Below, piece by piece: positions 30,001 to 42,000 of a DNA stretch of 64,000 bases. The stretch's first letter is position 1, and the number at the start of each line of letters is the position of its first letter. Location of the stretch: the NCBI RefSeq assembly GCF_058153355.1, contig NZ_CM177019.1. One strand, written 5' to 3'. The position numbers are program-made.

Positions 30001-33000
30001 CATATTAGGGAATTTACCGTTACTATCTATTAAGCCAGCTTTATCAGTCACACCGATTAATGTTCCTGATGAATCAAATAGGTTGATCAGCATAAAGGAG
30101 AAAATGATACCAGCGAGTTCAAGTGATAATGCGCCACTCAAATCCACTTCACCAATGACGCCGCTAATATCAGGCGGAATGGAATAGACGCCGCTAAATT
30201 GAACATCACCGAAAAATAATCCACAGCAAGACGTCACCACAATAGAGACCAGCACCGCGGCATGAAAATGACGAGATGACAACACGGTTATAATAAAAAA
30301 CCCTAATATACCTAACAACACACCGTGAGAACTTAAATCACCAATCATCACCAGGGTGTCTTTATTGGCGACAATAACACCAGTATTTTTTAACCCCATT
30401 AAGGCGATAAATAATCCGATTCCGCTAGTGATACCAATACGTAAACTTAAGGGAATGTTGGAGATCATCCAGTACCGGATACGAAACAGCGTGAGCAAAA
30501 ATAGTCCAATTGCGCCCCAGAATATCGCTCCCATCCCGGTCTGCCAGGAGATACCCATCGCCCCCACGACCACGAAGGCAAAGAAGGCGTTCAGCCCCAT
30601 TGCCGGAGCCAGCGCCACGGGTAAGTTAGCAAATATCCCCATCGCAATACTGCCGATACCGGCAATCAAACAGGTGGTAACAAACACCACTTTCGGGTCC
30701 ATTTGTGCCGCGCCGAGGATTTGCGGGTTCACAAAAACGATGTACACCATGGTTAAAAAAGTGGTCATCCCCGCAATCAATTCTGTGCGGACGGTGGTCC
30801 CATGTTGAGGCAGTTTAAATAATCGCGAAAGCGTCCCTGATTCATTACTCACGTAATCGGTATTGTCATTATTCATTTTTTTGTCCATTGGAGGAGATTT
30901 AATCCCTTGCTTTTGTAAAACAAATGACAACAACGGTTCAGTGATAATTATCACATTTCAATTGCGCATTAATGGATATTCTTTAATAATCTCGCGACGT
31001 TTCTTTATGATAAATAATAATCAAATTGATAAAATCAAAATGAGAAAAATATGAATAATTCCATTAACCATAAATTTCATCACATTAGCCGGGTTGAATA
31101 CCAGGAATTGTTAGCCGTTTCCCGTGGCGACGCTGTTGCCGATTATATTATTGATAATGTCTCTATTCTCGATCTGATCAATGGTGGAGAAATTTCCGGG
31201 CCAATTGTGATTAAAGGACGTCACATTGCCGGTGTTGGCGCAGAATATGCTGACGCTCCGGCTTTGCAGCGGATTGATGCACGCGGCGCAACGGCGGTGC
31301 CAGGGTTTATTGATGCTCACCTGCATATTGAATCCAGCATGATGACGCCGGTTACTTTTGAAACCGCCACCCTGCCGCGCGGCCTGACGACTGTTATTTG
31401 CGACCCCCATGAAATCGTCAACGTGATGGGCGAAGCCGGATTCGCCTGGTTTGCCCGCTGTGCCGAACAGGCAAGGCAAAACCAGTATTTGCAGGTCAGT
31501 TCTTGCGTACCCGCTCTGGAAGGCTGTGATGTTAACGGTGCCAGTTTTACCCTTGAACAGATGCTCGCCTGGCGGGACCATCCGCAGGTTACCGGCCTTG
31601 CAGAAATGATGGACTACCCTGGCGTAATTAGCGGGCAGAATGCGCTGCTCGATAAACTGGATGCATTTCGCCACCTGACGCTGGACGGTCACTGCCCAGG
31701 TTTGGGCGGTAAAGAACTTAATGCCTATATTGCTGCGGGTATTGAAAACTGCCACGAAAGTTATCTGCTGGAAGAAGGTCGCCGGAAGTTACAACTCGGC
31801 ATGTCGTTGATGATCCGCGAAGGGTCCGCTGCCCGCAATCTCAACGCGCTGGCACCGTTGATCAACGAATTTAACAGCCCGCAATGTATGCTCTGCACCG
31901 ATGACCGTAACCCGTGGGAGATCGCCCATGAAGGACATATCGATGCCTTAATTCGTCGCCTGATCGAACAACACAATGTGCCGCTGCATGTGGCATATCG
32001 CGTCGCCAGCTGGTCGACAGCACGCCATTTTGGTCTGAATCATCTCGGCTTACTGGCACCCGGCAAGCAGGCGGATATCGTCCTGTTGAGCGATGCGCGT
32101 AAGGTCACGGTGCAGCAGGTACTGGTGAAAGGCGAGCCGATTGACGCACAAACCTTACAAGCGGAAGAGTCAGCGAGACTGGAACAATCCGCTCCGCCGT
32201 ATGGCAATACCATTGCCCGCCAGCCAGTTTCCACCAGCGACTTTGCCCTGCAATTTACGCCTGGAAAACGCTATCGGGTCATTGACGTTATCCATAACGA
32301 ATTGATTACGCACTCCCGCTCCAGCGTCTACAGCGAAAATGGTTTTGATCGCGATGATGTGTGCTTTATTGCCGTACTTGAGCGTTACGGGAAAAAACTG
32401 GCTCCAGCCTGTGGTTTGCTCGGCGGTTTTGGCCTGAATGAAGGCGCGCTGGCTGCGACGGTCAGCCATGACAGCCATAATATTGTGGTGATCGGTCGTA
32501 GTGCCGAAGAGATGGCGCTGGCGGTCAATCAGGTGATTCAGGATGGCGGCGGGCTGTGCGTGGTACGTAACGGCCAGGTACAAAGTCATCTACCGTTGCC
32601 CATTGCGGGGCTAATGAGCACCGACACGGCGCAGTCGCTGGCGGAGCAAATTGACGCATTGAAAGCCGCCGCCCGTGAATGTGGTCCGTTACCGGATGAG
32701 CCGTTTATTCAGATGGCGTTTCTTTCCCTGCCAGTGATCCCCGCGCTGAAACTAACCAGTCAGGGGCTGTTTGATGGCGAGAAGTTTGCCTTCACCACGC
32801 TGGAAGTCACGGAATGAAAAAAGACCGTATTAGCTGATTTACGGAAAATATGTACTCCACAAGCGTCAATATCAGACGAGGCCTGGGAAAAGATGATGTT
32901 GTCTGATGAAAGTAATCAGCAGCACATCCGTGAGGCTATTGTGGCGATGGAACGCAATAACCAGAACAATTACTGGGAAGCGTTAGGCAAGGTTGAATGC

Positions 33001-39000: not shown

Positions 39001-42000
39001 GACGTTCACTCCACCTGGCTTGAGGCGGGTTATCAACGGGTTGATTATGATAAAGGCGGAGATAATTCCGGCTGGAAGCTGACGCTGTCACAGAACATTT
39101 CTATTGCGATGGGCCCGGAATTCCGCCCAATGCTACGTTTCTACATGACGGGCGGGCAAGTTGATAATGACCGAACTGCACGCGTCAACGGTACAAAAGA
39201 GGAAACGCTTGACGACTTTAACCTTGGCGCGATGTGGGAAGCCTGGTTCTGACAGACCACTCACATTGAGTTAATGCAACCAAAACACGCCTTCTTCTGG
39301 CTGGAAGAGGGCGTTATAGCCTATCTGGAAGGCATTAATCTCCTGCCTATCTGGCTCTAATTCACGGAGAAAACCCAGCGCCAGACGGACCTGGGCATCC
39401 GTGATCGGCGCAGCAAGACGCGCTTTTTGCAACAACCGATGCCAACGTAACAAGTTCTGCTCACTAGCATCGACAATCACAATTTGCCAGATAAGTAACA
39501 CCTGAGCAGCATTTTGCAGATGAGATTCATCCGGGCGATGCAAATAATACAAAAACTCTTCACCAGGCATTTTCCCCATCTGATCGATCATCGATTCTAC
39601 GGGTACAACATCAATATTAAGTCGTTCGCTTAAACGGCGGATCGCCCGTCGGGTGCCTGACATCAGAACCCGAAAACCAACCACAAATACCACCACGATG
39701 GTGGCAAGCATTATCCAGATCATGCGTTCTCCTGCTTATCAACTTTTGATGATATCTGGAAAACGTCCCCAGGCGTTAATCTGGTCTAATTGAATAAAAA
39801 AAGCCCGGCGTCATGCCGGGCAAAAGTCACCAGTTACGTTTATGCCACTGTCAACTGCTGAATCTTTTTCTCGCGGCGGATTTTGCGTTCTTCCATCACC
39901 GCCACTATCGCCATCAGGCAGATACAACCAATCGCGGCGATGTCCAGCGCGGCGAAGGTGCCTGCCCAGCCAGTAAGGCCGAATACTGGCGTCCCATCGG
40001 CAATCATCCCCAGCCCTAACTTGGCAAAGCTGTCGCCAATCAGGTAAGCAAAGGTGCCTTTAATACCATCGGCAGCACCAATGGCTTTTTTAGGTACAAA
40101 ACCAACAGCAGCCACACCAATCAACAATTGCGGGCCAAAGACCAGGAAACCTAACGCAAAGAGAGAAGCCAGGTAGATATATTCGTTGCTGGCATGTTGA
40201 TACACACCGAGCGTGGCGATAATCAGCGCCAGCGCAATGCAGGCCACCAGGCCACGGCGACCGTTCGCCAGGTCAGAGAGCCAGCCCCACAGCAGCGTAC
40301 CGACCAGCGCGCCAGCTTCAAACAGCGTAAAGCCCTGAATCGCCACCGCTTTAGAGAGTTTCAGTTCCTGGAACGCGTACACGGTTGACCACTGGTCGAT
40401 ACCAATACGCACCACATAGAGGAAAATGTTGGCGAAGCACAGCAGCCAGATCACTTTGTTTTTCAGCACATACTCAACAAAGATCTGCCACTTGGTCATA
40501 TCGGTAGATTCTGTCTCTTTGTCCTCTTCGCTGATCTCCTCGCCGAACAGCTCTTCAGCTTTGCCGAGGCCATAAGATTCCGGGGAGTCGCTGCCGTAAC
40601 GCAGGCCGATAAAACCGACAATCAGCGCGATAATCGACGGGAAGATAAACATGCCGATGACATGACCATCGAACAGGTAATTTGCGCCGAACAGCGCCAC
40701 ACCTGCTGCGCCTGCACCGCCAAGGTTGTGAGAAATGTTCCAGAAACCGAGGAATGTCCCGCGCTTACGACGCGGCGTCCATTTGGTGATGGTGGAGTAA
40801 CTGCACGATCCCCCGGTACTCTGGAAAAAGCCGCTTAAGGCGTAGAAGGCAATCATCAGGAACAGGCTAACCGAGCCGCTGCCCATACTGGCACTGAAGC
40901 CCAGCATACAAATGGCAGACAGGATCAGCATGAACGGCAGGAATTGTTTGGTGTTTTTGCCGTCGGCGTAGTAGGAAACCAGCGTTTTACCCACGCCATA
41001 AGTGATGGAGAAGCCCAGGCCGATCATCCCCAGCTGCGTCATGCTCAAGCCGTAGGTCGAGATCATGTCGTTCTGCGCGATGTTAAAGTTCTTGCGAATC
41101 AGGTACATCGTCAGGTAGCCGATAAAGACCACCAGGTAGGATTGCATGAACGGTTTGAACCACATTTTGCGCCGCACTTCGAGCGGAAGATCCAGGGTCG
41201 GCTTGCGAACCTGGTTTAAGAAAGCCAGCATGGGTTACTCCTGAAATGAATACCTGCGTGAGGTATGCATTGTAAAAATCAGTAGCAAATCAGGCCTGAG
41301 ATAGCGTCCAGGCAAAACCTGGAAAATTTCTTAGTTTTGCCGGATATGAAGTGAAAAGGTGAGATGCATCACGCTTCGCGCGGTGCCTGGGCGTTCAAAA
41401 AGGGCAGTAATAGCAGTGCGGAAATCCCGGCGGCGATAGAGATAACCACAAAAAATCCGCTCCAGTGCCAGGTATCGAGTACTTTCGCCAGCGGCCAACC
41501 AGCAAGCGACGCCCCCAGATAAGCAAACAAGCCGACAAACCCCGTTGCCGCCCCTGCCGCCTCTTTGTGGGAACACTCTGCTGCCGCCATGCCGATTAAC
41601 ATCTGCGGGCCAAAGACAAAAAAACCAATGGTGAAGAAGCAGCTTGCCTGCATCACGTAGCTGGCAAATGGCATCAGCCACAGCGAGCCGACGGACAGCA
41701 AAATTCCGGCAGCGAAAATCAAATTCATCGGCCCGCGGTTGCCGTTAAACAATTTGTCCGAGCCCCAACCCGCTACCAGCGCACCGATAAATCCGCCCAG
41801 TTCAAACATCGTCACTGCCGTATTCGCCGTGACCAGATCGACGCCCAGCGTCTCGGACATATACAAATTGCCCCAGTCGTTGATCGCCGCCCGAACCACA
41901 TAGACCAGCACATAGCAAAACGAAAGCAGCCAGATATACGGATTCAGCAACACATACTTGGTGAGGATCTCTTTACGCGTCAGCCCTGCCCCTTCTTGTT

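Follow-up and report, generated by a model that had tools for sequence, protein, structure and literature searches.

The 64,000-nt stretch of Escherichia coli DNA analyzed here (the window; RefSeq assembly GCF_058153355.1, contig NZ_CM177019.1) carries a 6,977-bp islet, at positions 32816-39792, flanked by the adeD stop and the uhpT terminator. It is an additional copy, in truncated form and of the type found in Escherichia fergusonii, of a block conserved in Enterobacteriaceae chromosomes. Overall, it is best explained, with good probability in our judgment, as a copy of an E. fergusonii-type block that was joined through microhomology after adeD, can be lost again and functions in beta-glucoside uptake. 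The genomes compared show directly its anatomy and homologies, the sequences of its junctions, its distribution and the conservation of its regulatory motifs.

In K-12, adeD and uhpT are neighbors 45 bp apart and the cluster is not there, in agreement with the adjacency given in a preliminary description of the window. In the islet, a yicS 3' pseudogene is followed by genes for a LacI-family regulator, PTS IIB and IIC, a GH1 glycosidase, PTS IIA and a LamB-type porin, and by a second yicN (Table 1). All genes of the LacI-regulated sugar cluster reported earlier were found, intact. The RefSeq annotation of E. coli PapRG-06-5 lists the same series, including a 'YicS family protein, missing N-terminus', and in all seven islet-carrying E. 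coli genomes read, the annotation shows the regulator gene and the five genes of the operon as intact.

Table 1. Features of the islet, its flanks and the resident paralogues of its edges (window coordinates).
Feature	Position	Strand	Evidence or remark
Resident full-length yicS, 97 aa	9550..9843	+	NCBIfam YicS_fam 129.9 bits; paralogue of islet left relic
Resident yicN (yicN1, DUF1198)	29037..29489	-	99% aa identity to K-12 YicN; paralogue of yicN2
adeD (adenine deaminase), left flank	31051..32817	+	
Left junction J1 and left copy of imperfect direct repeat GAATGAAAAAAGACC	32812..32826		
yicS 3' pseudogene (yicS'), E. fergusonii type, last ~60-64 codons, start codon absent	32816 (or 32830)..33012	+	PGAP pseudogene
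Perfect hairpin GTAGACGTGAAGC-CGCA-GCTTCACGTCTAC	33009..33038		Read from sequence
LacI-family transcriptional regulator, 318 aa	33048..34004	-	PGAP; Pfam LacI and Peripla_BP_3 on homologue
Palindrome O1 ATGGAAACCGATTTTCCAT	34101..34119		Conservation, Escherichia to Yersinia, Erwinia, Pantoea
CRP-like site TCTGAtagccgTCACA	34194..34209		Conservation; binding predicted
Palindrome O2 ATGGAAACCGGTTTCCAA, close 5' of IIB gene	34227..34244		Kept in 18/18 aligned loci
PTS EIIB, lactose/cellobiose family	34297..34611	+	Annotation, NCBIfam
PTS EIIC, lactose/cellobiose family	34624..35955	+	TIGR00410 368 bits (cut-off 236)
GH1 glycosidase, probably 6-phospho-beta-glucosidase	35976..37373	+	Solved relatives 4B3K, 5FOO; motifs
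PTS EIIA, lactose/cellobiose family	37370..37672	+	Annotation, NCBIfam
LamB-family outer-membrane carbohydrate porin	37873..39252	+	Pfam LamB on homologue
yicN2 (DUF1198), E. fergusonii-type second copy	39271..39723	-	97.1% nt identity to E. fergusonii yicN
yicN2 upstream region	39724..39792		Terminal ~30 bp align weakly with yicN-adeQ boundary of relatives
Right junction J2 and right direct-repeat copy GAATAAAAAAAGCCC	39792..39806		
Intrinsic terminator of uhpT (and adeD), A-run and GC hairpin	39796..39821	-	Identical to K-12
uhpT	39840..41231	-	

The two edges are homologues of resident genes, as had been noticed earlier. On the left, yicS' adjoins the adeD stop (TGA, 32815-32817), aligns with resident yicS at 9647-9841 (82.1% nt identity over 195 bp, E 1.4e-51) and scores 92.7 bits against NCBIfam YicS_fam over profile positions 37-96 of 96. 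On the right, the islet aligns with resident yicN at 29037-29538 (79.1% nt over 507 bp, E 9e-120), yicN1 and yicN2 sharing 78.7% nt and 85% aa identity; just 18 bp, without nepI, separate yicN2 from the porin stop. The remaining islet has no further match in the remaining window. The divergence of relics from residents (79-82% identity) is about that of E. coli and Citrobacter orthologues. The islet shares 98.0-98.4% identity with the native locus of E. fergusonii, so that the members of each pair, yicS/yicS' and yicN1/yicN2, are alleles belonging to two separate lineages. Neither the half yicS nor the redundant yicN2 is more than a passenger: yicS' is a dead gene, and yicN2, under relaxed constraint, is gaining amino-acid changes (dN 0.023 versus 0-0.007 for the regulator gene and the five genes of the operon) and has lost its start codon in strain 19KM1831. 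The terminal ~30 bp 5' of yicN2, with their weak alignment, could be a relic of the donor adeQ 3' end. The preliminary description also had yicS and yicN flanking nepI about 4 kb upstream. Such yicS-nepI adjacency exists in K-12-like strains only; in the window, yicS lies 23 kb upstream, and a ~17-kb ETT2-type remnant (SipB/SipD-like genes, eilA, iatC) separates it from nepI (26843-28033).

The native context of the block was established by running tblastn against 80 loci that a scan of species-representative genomes had yielded. The order yicS-regulator-IIB-IIC-GH1-IIA-porin-nepI-yicN-(adeQ-adeD)-uhpT is found in Citrobacter, Enterobacter, Leclercia, Silvania, Lelliottia, Kosakonia, Pseudescherichia, Phytobacter and Superficieibacter; nlpA, wherever it was detected, lies upstream. 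E. fergusonii holds its only copy in the order yicL-yicS(full)-cluster-yicN-(adeQ relic)-adeD-terminator-uhpT; this order recurs in locus L087 and six complete chromosomes (L094-L099) whose YicL is 100% identical to NCBI's E. fergusonii protein. The islet has the same genes, order, orientation and palindromes as the E. fergusonii locus and as those of Citrobacter (~79-80% nt), Enterobacter, Leclercia and Kosakonia. nepI is absent from the islet and the E. fergusonii locus and present in the other genera's. In contrast to the native locus, the islet lies at a new site after adeD as a second, truncated copy that retains only the 3' part of yicS and lacks yicL. The ~6.95-kb match to E. fergusonii that includes yicS' has, as a whole, 98.1% identity for L087 and 97.3% for L096. 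The native order in other genera, together with the identity to E. fergusonii, therefore marks the islet as a copy of the E. fergusonii-type block carrying relics of its native neighbors, whereas the resident E. coli block has lost the sugar operon.

The donor would be of E. fergusonii type. Islet identity is 98.0-98.4% to E. fergusonii loci, 98.4-98.6% to other E. coli islets and 79.6% to Citrobacter, and E. fergusonii loci are 99-100% identical among themselves. A neighbor-joining tree recovers E. fergusonii as monophyletic in 100/100 bootstraps and does so for the E. coli islets in 74-94/100; of 21 fixed differences between them, Citrobacter has the E. coli state at 11 and the E. fergusonii state at 1. 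Given this reciprocal monophyly and the Citrobacter agreement, the donor was not a modern E. fergusonii strain; it may have been the stem lineage, or a third species giving to both. The resident E. coli genes are distant alleles: identity between the two species is 68-80% for yicL, yicS, yicN and the initial ~250 bp of adeD. Around the block, in contrast, E. fergusonii matches the window at 98% in yicI-yicJ-selC and at 97% in uhpT-uhpA, the latter being 95% identical to K-12. Because these local flanks are themselves 95-98% identical, the 1.8% islet divergence alone cannot date the transfer to after speciation.

Chromosomal sequence extends to T32815, and E. fergusonii-type yicS sequence begins at G32816 (in E. 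fergusonii yicS, GCAAAT followed by GAAAAAAAGACCGTATTAGC; in the window, ACGGAAT followed by GAAAAAAGACCGTATTAGC), homology to the E. fergusonii locus starting at 32813. Chromosomal sequence restarts at A39793. Removing 32816-39792 restores exactly the empty site GGAATAATAAAAAAAGCCC, which is identical in K-12, O157 and E. fergusonii; the adeD stop is TAA at empty sites, and the TGA arises at the junction. Both junctions fall at one point of the adeD-stop/terminator sequence, neither lies inside yicS or yicN homology, and the shared sequence is only 3-4 nt (AAT/GAAT), embedded in a 15-nt imperfect repeat.

From these junctions we infer the direction and mechanism of insertion. A fragment from mid-yicS to just upstream of yicN of an E. 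fergusonii-type block would have been joined in at a precise point, with the final sense codon of adeD on one side and, on the other, the A-run of the terminator that adeD and uhpT share. The joins would be illegitimate, microhomology-mediated recombination at AAT/GAAT, and neither site-specific integration nor yicS/yicN crossing-over. Either one double end-joining, or a homology-anchored insertion duplicating adeD and then an adeQ*-adeD* deletion, is possible. Homology-facilitated and microhomology-mediated illegitimate recombination of foreign chromosomal DNA are described in naturally transformable bacteria. The islet resembles these processes in having joins of foreign chromosomal DNA at microhomologies of 3-4 nt and no recombinase gene. 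The copy in strain LH50-c shows the classic combination of one homologous and one illegitimate end; the adeD/uhpT islet differs in that both ends are illegitimate and a homologous anchor is not visible.

Comparison across genomes, proposed with the preliminary description, reveals a presence/absence polymorphism in E. coli and the existence of single-copy relatives. The complete islet in the window's arrangement occurs in 24 of 5,426 complete E. coli genomes (<1%), one further genome has a relocated copy, and two retain a truncated porin'-yicN2 remnant, with IS1 abutting the truncated porin in the one examined. A shorter empty site, GGAATAAAAAAAGCCC, with 3 nt less than the ancestral site, is present in ~21 complete E. 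coli genomes. In five of these, the adeD/uhpT flanks are 98-99.2% identical to the main islet-carrying group, versus 96.7-97.5% identity to K-12/O157 over the adeD 3' kilobase. Recombination between the GAAT repeats would excise the islet and leave GGAATAAAAAAAGCCC, and such a site suggests that the islet can be lost again; alternatively, it could reflect simple AAT slippage older than the insertion.

Other origins have to be weighed against this account. An unsampled enterobacterial donor could have given independently to E. fergusonii, replacing the whole selC-adeD interval, and to E. coli, leaving the islet. We regard this as unlikely, although several observations favor it: the E. fergusonii selC-adeD5' block has only 68-80% identity to its E. 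coli counterpart; E. albertii proteins share the 90%-identity YicN cluster of E. coli YicN1; the block is equidistant (~79%) from Citrobacter; and the clades are reciprocally monophyletic, with most derived fixed changes in E. fergusonii. However, among 5.8 billion clusters no protein from outside Escherichia came closer than 88-89% to YicN or YicL of E. fergusonii type, and the GH1 scan gave no match beyond 93% aa identity outside that genus. More doubtful still is an islet arrangement ancestral to E. coli and deleted in nearly all lineages, with K-12-like sites secondary. The terminal direct repeats would permit precise excision, and the ~21 genomes carry the predicted scar, the five examined sharing flank haplotypes with islet carriers. 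Moreover, the islet is not young, since its copies diverge by as much as 1.6% between E. coli strains; across strains, islet similarity correlates with flank similarity, as would also be expected if the islet had long been inherited vertically and lost repeatedly. Nevertheless, the common empty site GGAATAATAAAAAAAGCCC has a sequence identical to the adeD-terminator junction of E. fergusonii and is not a repeat-excision product, Citrobacter MGH106 has a related terminator 25 bp past the adeD stop (split by a ~170-bp insertion), and the islet relics are truncated, full-length versions occurring only in the E. fergusonii-type block.

The preliminary description favored duplication of a yicS...yicN segment within the genome, divergence of the cargo (nepI versus PTS operon) and gain or loss by homologous recombination between the copies. 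Both flanks are true yicS and yicN homologues and the two blocks are complementary in content; as a description, 'swapped cargo' is apt because E. fergusonii has yicS-cluster-yicN without nepI and K-12 has yicS-nepI-yicN without the cluster. The proposed movement, in contrast, is very improbable. The copies are no closer than E. coli and Citrobacter, while the islet is 98% identical to a native, single-copy locus; both junctions sit at the adeD stop/terminator, outside yicS and yicN; and yicS does not flank nepI here. Furthermore, yicN1 x yicN2 or yicS x yicS' recombination would delete nepI-adeD, an arrangement seen in 0 of 5,426 genomes, and no sign of yicN1 to yicN2 gene conversion was found. 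Least credible of all is a classical mobile genomic island moved by integrase, transposase or phage. The insert is discrete and bears short direct repeats, and the LH50-c copy lies within a large mosaic island that also contains IS3 and the gene of a SPATE protease. Against this, all PGAP and Pfam annotations of the islet are free of transposases and integrases, selC (5567-5661) is the window's only tRNA gene, with none in 32816-39792, and the repeats are imperfect chromosomal sequences, namely the yicS interior and the terminator A-run. The LH50-c copy starts with 190 bp of adeD and ends in a crossover within a divergent porin gene, a pattern that fits homology-facilitated illegitimate recombination rather than transposition. 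Transfer of an E. fergusonii-type block through microhomology thus remains our preferred reading.

Among known E. coli systems, chb, bgl and asc are closest to the cargo. The chitobiose/cellobiose PTS operon chb (chbBCARFG) encodes separate IIB, IIC and IIA proteins of the lactose/cellobiose family and a phospho-glycosidase, an arrangement that the islet shares. However, the islet IIC scores 200 bits against the Chb IIC equivalog model (cut-off 760), and chb has the GH4 enzyme ChbF, ChbR/NagC regulators and no porin, whereas the islet has a GH1 enzyme, a LacI-family regulator and a LamB-type porin. The bgl (bglGFBH) and asc (ascGFB) operons couple aryl-beta-glucoside PTS uptake to a GH1 phospho-beta-glucosidase, bgl with the LamB-type porin BglH and antiterminator control, asc with the LacI-type repressor AscG. 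The islet likewise joins PTS uptake to GH1, with the porin type of bgl and the repressor type of asc. In contrast to their fused EII transporters of the glucose/beta-glucoside family, its transporter consists of three separate proteins of the lactose/cellobiose family.

The closest solved relatives of the GH1 enzyme, PDB 4B3K (Streptococcus pyogenes; E 2.5e-150) and 5FOO (6-phospho-beta-D-glycosidase; E 1.1e-149), align with it over the full length and have in common with it a C-terminal WSWLNAYKNRYG segment and the catalytic motifs FNEP and SENG, which can be read in the islet translation; they belong to a different phylum, and their substrate is not directly transferable. The enzyme scores well below the cut-offs of NCBIfam 6-phospho-beta-glucosidase subfamily models, every NCBIfam match of the regulator is below cut-off, as is that of the porin (maltoporin subfamily, 133 bits), and no equivalog-level NCBIfam match assigns a substrate to the islet. 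The regulatory motifs are conserved. O1 overlaps a -35/-10-like pair for the regulator gene (minus strand, 34107-34078), and the CRP-like site is invariant at TGAT-N6-TCACA in 18 aligned loci from many genera. The hairpin between the convergent yicS' and regulator genes is probably a retained native bidirectional terminator.

The predicted pathway would begin with a LamB-type porin admitting a beta-glucoside, for which cellobiose, gentiobiose/amygdalin and aryl-glucosides are candidates. EIIC, EIIB and EIIA would import and phosphorylate it, and the GH1 enzyme would cleave the 6-phospho-glycoside. The LacI-family protein would repress through the two conserved palindromes and CRP-cAMP would activate. 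Judged from sequence, the islet would therefore provide E. coli strains that carry it with CRP- and repressor-controlled uptake and cleavage of beta-glucosides.

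The preliminary description had placed a LacI-regulated PTS, GH1 and porin cluster between the adenine deaminase gene and uhpT, and all of its named genes are found there, in the segment referred to here as the islet (see the table). In K-12, adeD and uhpT are adjacent without the cluster, separated by 45 bp. Homology at both ends is borne out by nucleotide alignment: the start-less relic of yicS at the left end (yicS') aligns over 195 bp to the resident yicS with 82.1% identity (E 1.4e-51), and the right end, with the second yicN (yicN2), aligns over 507 bp to the resident yicN (yicN1) and the sequence upstream of it with 79.1% identity (E 9e-120); the remaining islet sequence bears no resemblance to the rest of the 64-kb window. 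The distance of about 4 kb to the resident flanks was inexact, because an ETT2 remnant separates yicS from nepI in the window and leaves yicS 23 kb from the islet. Genome comparison found the islet in place in 24 of 5,426 complete E. coli genomes, the rest including sites without it. The observation is thus confirmed, and its interpretation as gain or loss by recombination between duplicated yicS...yicN segments is partly supported. RefSeq annotation of the 24 genomes gives the same gene series, including a 'YicS family protein, missing N-terminus'. The islet is already machine-annotated, and as far as the searched literature shows (yicS/yicN; uhpT with adenine deaminase and cellobiose; E. fergusonii cellobiose PTS) the locus is undescribed. 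Outside the islet, parts of the window reach 98.6-99.5% identity with complete E. coli genomes, none of which matches the window closely along its full length.

Coordinates of features in the window and sequences at the islet junctions
Feature	Coordinates	Remarks
yicI, yicJ		left part of the window, in order
selC	5567-5661	the window's only tRNA gene
Interval divergent from E. fergusonii	5662-31300	just right of selC to ~250 bp inside adeD
setC, yicL		follow selC in order
nlpA	8523-9341	
yicS	9550-9843	resident copy
ETT2-type remnant	10145-26800	~17 kb, between yicS and nepI; SipB/SipD-like genes, eilA, iatC/air giant inverse autotransporter
nepI	26843-28033	
RelE/ParE-family toxin and HTH antitoxin genes	28255-28921	between nepI and yicN
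yicN (yicN1)	29037-29489	resident copy
adeQ		
adeD	31051-32817	followed by the islet
Islet	32816-39792	between the adeD stop and the uhpT terminator
yicS'	to 33012	3' end of yicS, start-less
LacI-family gene		minus strand
Palindrome O1	34101-34119	
CRP-like site TGAT-N6-TCACA	34194-34209	
Palindrome O2	34227-34244	
IIB, IIC, GH1 glycosidase, IIA, LamB-type porin		plus strand
yicN2		minus strand
Left junction (J1)		ACGGAAT, then GAAAAAAGACCGTATTAGC
E. fergusonii yicS at the point matching J1		GCAAAT, then GAAAAAAAGACCGTATTAGC
Right junction (J2)		...GGTCTAATTG, then AATAAAAAAAGCCCGGCG
uhpT	39840-41231	right of the islet
uhpC-uhpA interval	41267-44851	
uhpB-uhpA stretch	42500-44500	
uhpA-ilvN segment	45000-47000	
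uhpCBA, ilvNB		right of uhpT

The native setting of the operon was traced by a GH1-protein scan of species-representative genomes followed by tblastn with 16 local proteins. Among the matches listed, the order yicS-regulator-IIB-IIC-GH1-IIA-porin-nepI-yicN-(adeQ-adeD)-uhpT is kept in Citrobacter, Enterobacter, Leclercia, Silvania and Lelliottia, and also in Kosakonia, Pseudescherichia, Phytobacter and Superficieibacter, with nlpA upstream of the block wherever it was detected. This conservation across genera identifies yicS and yicN as the operon's ordinary neighbours. K-12 has both neighbours and no sugar operon; in Yersinia, Serratia, Pantoea and Erwinia the operon lies in different gene contexts. 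The operon genes are 79-82% identical in nucleotides to those of Citrobacter, the same distance as the core genes nlpA, nepI and adeQ. The gap between yicS and nepI, empty in K-12, is where Citrobacter, Enterobacter and other genera have the beta-glucoside operon and where the window has the ETT2 remnant; iatC/air occupies this position in all seven islet-carrying E. coli whose annotation was read. In Citrobacter werkmanii, C. youngae and two Citrobacter sp. (L007, L008, L011, L028), the GH1 gene stands there alone, regulator, PTS and porin genes being undetected by tblastn between yicS and nepI. Among the matches listed, the closest non-Escherichia relatives of the islet GH1 include these orphan genes (up to 93% amino acid identity).

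E. fergusonii was absent among the matches listed in the GH1 scan, which briefly suggested an unsampled donor. The donor-type locus was then found by a search with the YicN2 protein, leading to the Logan contig L087 and on to a search with its YicL. A close YicN2 relative was not found outside Escherichia, the best being 88% identical (Citrobacter youngae). On L087, islet genes lie beside a yicS of full length and a yicL whose identity to the E. coli gene is only 78.6%, and the encoded YicL is 100% identical to an E. fergusonii protein present on hundreds of contigs. Six complete chromosomes with this YicL (L094-L099) all have the order yicI-yicJ-(selC)-RhuM-yicL-yicS-regulator-IIB-IIC-GH1-IIA-porin-yicN, followed directly by adeD-uhpT in five and by a DDE transposase gene in L094; the matching YicN is named 'Escherichia fergusonii' at NCBI. 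Over 6.4 kb, the window islet is 98.0-98.4% identical to the E. fergusonii loci, with 98.4-98.6% to other E. coli islets, 79.6% to Citrobacter and, for reference, 99-100% within E. fergusonii. This homology runs from the base after the adeD reading frame to ~40 bp upstream of yicN2, itself 97.1% identical to E. fergusonii yicN. Judged by its sequence, the islet is an E. fergusonii-type allele of the yicS-cluster-yicN block, both relics included. It is an accessory sugar operon gained as a fragment of a related chromosome, the source block being identifiable through the relic neighbours yicS' and yicN2. In a neighbour-joining tree, E. coli islets and E. fergusonii loci are reciprocally monophyletic, and the fixed differences between them are mostly derived on the E. 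fergusonii side. Consequently, the transfer was either old or came from a stem or sister lineage.

The empty site, ACGGAATAATAAAAAAAGCCCGGCG..., is common to K-12, O157 and E. fergusonii, and deleting the islet in silico restores exactly this ancestral site. Identity between the joins and the target is confined to AAT/GAAT, within an imperfect repeat of 15 nt (left, GAATGAAAAAAGACC; right, GAATAAAAAAAGCCC) that matches at 13 of 15 positions. The terminator right of the islet is K-12-like at every base, so uhpT was not the site of a homologous crossover. At its right end, the insert has ~30 bp that give a weak alignment to the yicN-adeQ boundary of relatives and are possibly a relic of the donor adeQ 3' end. 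No integrase, transposase or tRNA gene is annotated in the islet, and the features of classical integrative genomic islands (integrase or transposase, tRNA/att target, perfect direct repeats) are absent, the repeats being imperfect; the islet has 47.0% G+C and its flanks 49.8% and 55.0%. The best reading is that the islet represents a chromosomal fragment inserted by illegitimate, microhomology-mediated recombination. Insertion may have taken a single step, or an adeD-anchored intermediate may later have lost the donor-derived copies adeQ*-adeD*. In the window, yicS' lies in the adeD frame; by coordinates, it is one base out of frame in PapRG-06-5. In Citrobacter sp. MGH106 (L006 18790-19010), a ~170-bp insertion splits the adeD/uhpT terminator hairpin.

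yicN1 and yicN2 are 78.7% identical in nucleotides and 85% in amino acids, and each is 87% identical to Citrobacter YicN at the protein level; synonymous divergence for dating the paralogues against Citrobacter was saturated (dS 1-4 or undefined), and identities and dN were used. The resident and imported copies are alleles of different lineages. A tandem duplication of yicS...adeD with later complementary deletions is unlikely, since large tandem repeats lack stability and the two copies have diverged by ~20%; such a model also leaves the 98% match to E. fergusonii unexplained. yicN1 and yicN2 show no trace of gene conversion (only two or three of 9-13 differences match yicN1). The converse proposal, that the E. 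coli resident block is foreign and the islet a native relic, was rejected because, left of J1, the 3' part of adeD matches the E. fergusonii type at 97% as far as the stop. From the right of selC through the first ~250 bp of adeD, E. coli and E. fergusonii (L094-L099, L087) are 68-80% identical or unalignable, whereas yicI-yicJ-selC of E. fergusonii is 98% identical to the window, and its adeD 3'-uhpT-uhpA region shows 97% identity with the window and 95% with K-12. The two species thus differ by 20-30% across this block and by 2-5% in the DNA on either side (95-98% identity), and adeD, divergent only in its first ~250 bp, is a mosaic between them. The E. fergusonii interval is without setC, nlpA, nepI and adeQ, and E. 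albertii proteins share a 90%-identity YicN cluster with E. coli YicN1. The interval looks to have been replaced long ago in one Escherichia lineage, possibly E. fergusonii.

Other parts of the window also vary. The uhpB-uhpA stretch, with only 91-95% identity to other E. coli, islet carriers included, may be a separate allele, introgressed or ancient; the uhpC-uhpA interval is 97% identical to that of E. fergusonii L087. The uhpA-ilvN segment, which encodes hypothetical proteins, varies between E. coli strains (57-95% identity); K-12 lacks it and has ilvN directly after uhpA. The RelE/HTH pair occurs in O157 and all examined islet carriers, and not in K-12.

Across the 5,426 complete E. coli genomes, the islet is relocated in one and reduced to a porin'-yicN2 remnant in two, and several hundred contigs labelled E. 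coli in a wider collection carry islet-type YicN variants. Islet carriers include the strains 06-00048, PapRG-06-5 and XJ34. In E. coli 14EC033 (L005), IS1 abuts the truncated porin gene, porin'-yicN2 remains beside uhpT and tnaA-tnaB is now adjacent, which indicates an IS1-mediated rearrangement; CUWW06 (hit H57) shows the same partial porin-yicN2 match. An event related to the insertion is recorded by the relocated copy, in E. coli LH50-c (L004 8689-8827, 14418-15436; L100-L105), which starts with 190 bp of adeD, includes the yicS relic and lies in a mosaic island alongside GH43, xylA, IS3 and a SPATE protease gene. On either side of the copy stand the 5' and 3' pieces of another porin gene, of 70-78% identity. 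In a sliding profile, the identity of the copy to the E. coli type is 99-100% except at the porin 3' end, which is swapped for a 70-75% allele; an ancient J1, suggested by an apparent 95% identity of this copy, was dropped once the replaced end was set apart. Its left join to the porin 5' fragment is illegitimate, and its right join is a crossover inside the 70-75% divergent porin gene. In the public collection, 66 blocks index the exact GH1 protein encoded by the LH50-c copy.

Three states of the adeD-uhpT site were distinguished: islet, GGAATAAAAAAAGCCC and GGAATAATAAAAAAAGCCC. The empty site GGAATAAAAAAAGCCC, found in about 21 complete E. coli genomes, is 3 nt below the ancestral length and is the exact product expected from recombination between the GAAT repeats. 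Five of these strains have adeD/uhpT flanks that most resemble those of the main group of islet carriers (98-99.2% identity); over the adeD 3' kilobase, K-12/O157 reach 96.7-97.5%. This suggests that the short sites may be excision products of the islet. The same sequence and flank similarity are equally compatible with a short allele that predated the insertion.

EIIC scores 368.3 bits against TIGR00410 (lacE subfamily; cut-off 236), which places it in the lactose/cellobiose (Lac) family, and reaches no NCBIfam IIC equivalog cut-off for cellobiose, chitobiose or lactose (CelB/ChbC models: TIGR00359, 368 of 434 bits; NF007634 (ChbC), 200 of 760; NF007157, 239 of 503). IIB and IIA find the right families as best NCBIfam matches, below cut-off (TIGR00853, 91.9 of 110 bits; TIGR00823, 120.8 of 136.95), and Pfam PTS_IIB and PTS_IIA are recorded on their E. 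fergusonii homologues. The GH1 translation has the motifs WFTFNEP (acid/base NEP) and FISENG (nucleophile ENG) and aligns in full length to the GH1 structures 4B3K and 5FOO (E 1e-150), the latter, the best solved relative named for a phospho-substrate, deposited as a 6-phospho-beta-D-glycosidase. It scores 196-228 bits against NCBIfam 6-phospho-beta-glucosidase subfamilies (cut-offs >620) and 416 against the BGL equivalog (cut-off 478); linkage to the PTS would fit phospho-beta-glucoside specificity. The porin has a LamB domain (PF02264 on homologues) but is not maltoporin itself, with 133 bits against 394 for the NCBIfam maltoporin subfamily. The regulator combines an N-terminal HTH with a periplasmic-binding-protein-like domain (Pfam LacI and Peripla_BP_3 on a homologue), and its best NCBIfam match is a LacI subfamily, under cut-off. 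The 292-bp regulatory region contains O1, O2 and the CRP-like site, which are kept from Escherichia to Yersinia and Pantoea; the two palindromes (ATGGAAACCGATTTTCCAT and ATGGAAACCGGTTTCCA), putative operators, are kept across 18 loci of many genera, and O1 overlaps a promoter-like pair of the regulator gene. The operon would accordingly direct catabolite-controlled, repressor-gated uptake and cleavage of a beta-glucoside. Its five genes and the regulator gene are annotated as intact in all seven islet carriers read (dN 0-0.007); for yicN2, dN is 0.023, and the start codon of this gene is missing from one strain.

Fermentation of cellobiose and amygdalin is stated, in passages of PMC9830988 (citing Farmer et al. 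1985) and PMC5454151, to set E. fergusonii apart from E. coli, and the operon is a candidate for this trait. Islet-carrying E. coli may ferment cellobiose and amygdalin too, and biochemical misidentification could follow. A metabolic operon was regained, at a new site and without a mobile element, by a species that had lost it, as a fragment of a relative's chromosome with stubs of its native neighbours still attached. The fuller account is tentative and rather doubtful as a whole: the operon would be the basis of the distinguishing fermentation, its presence in a minority of E. coli would reflect an old inter-species transfer purely by microhomology end-joining, and the event would be reversible, the 3-nt-shorter sites being excision scars. 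If the account is true, it would explain atypical cellobiose-positive E. coli and provide a concrete, datable case of gene flow between two species reported as non-recombining.
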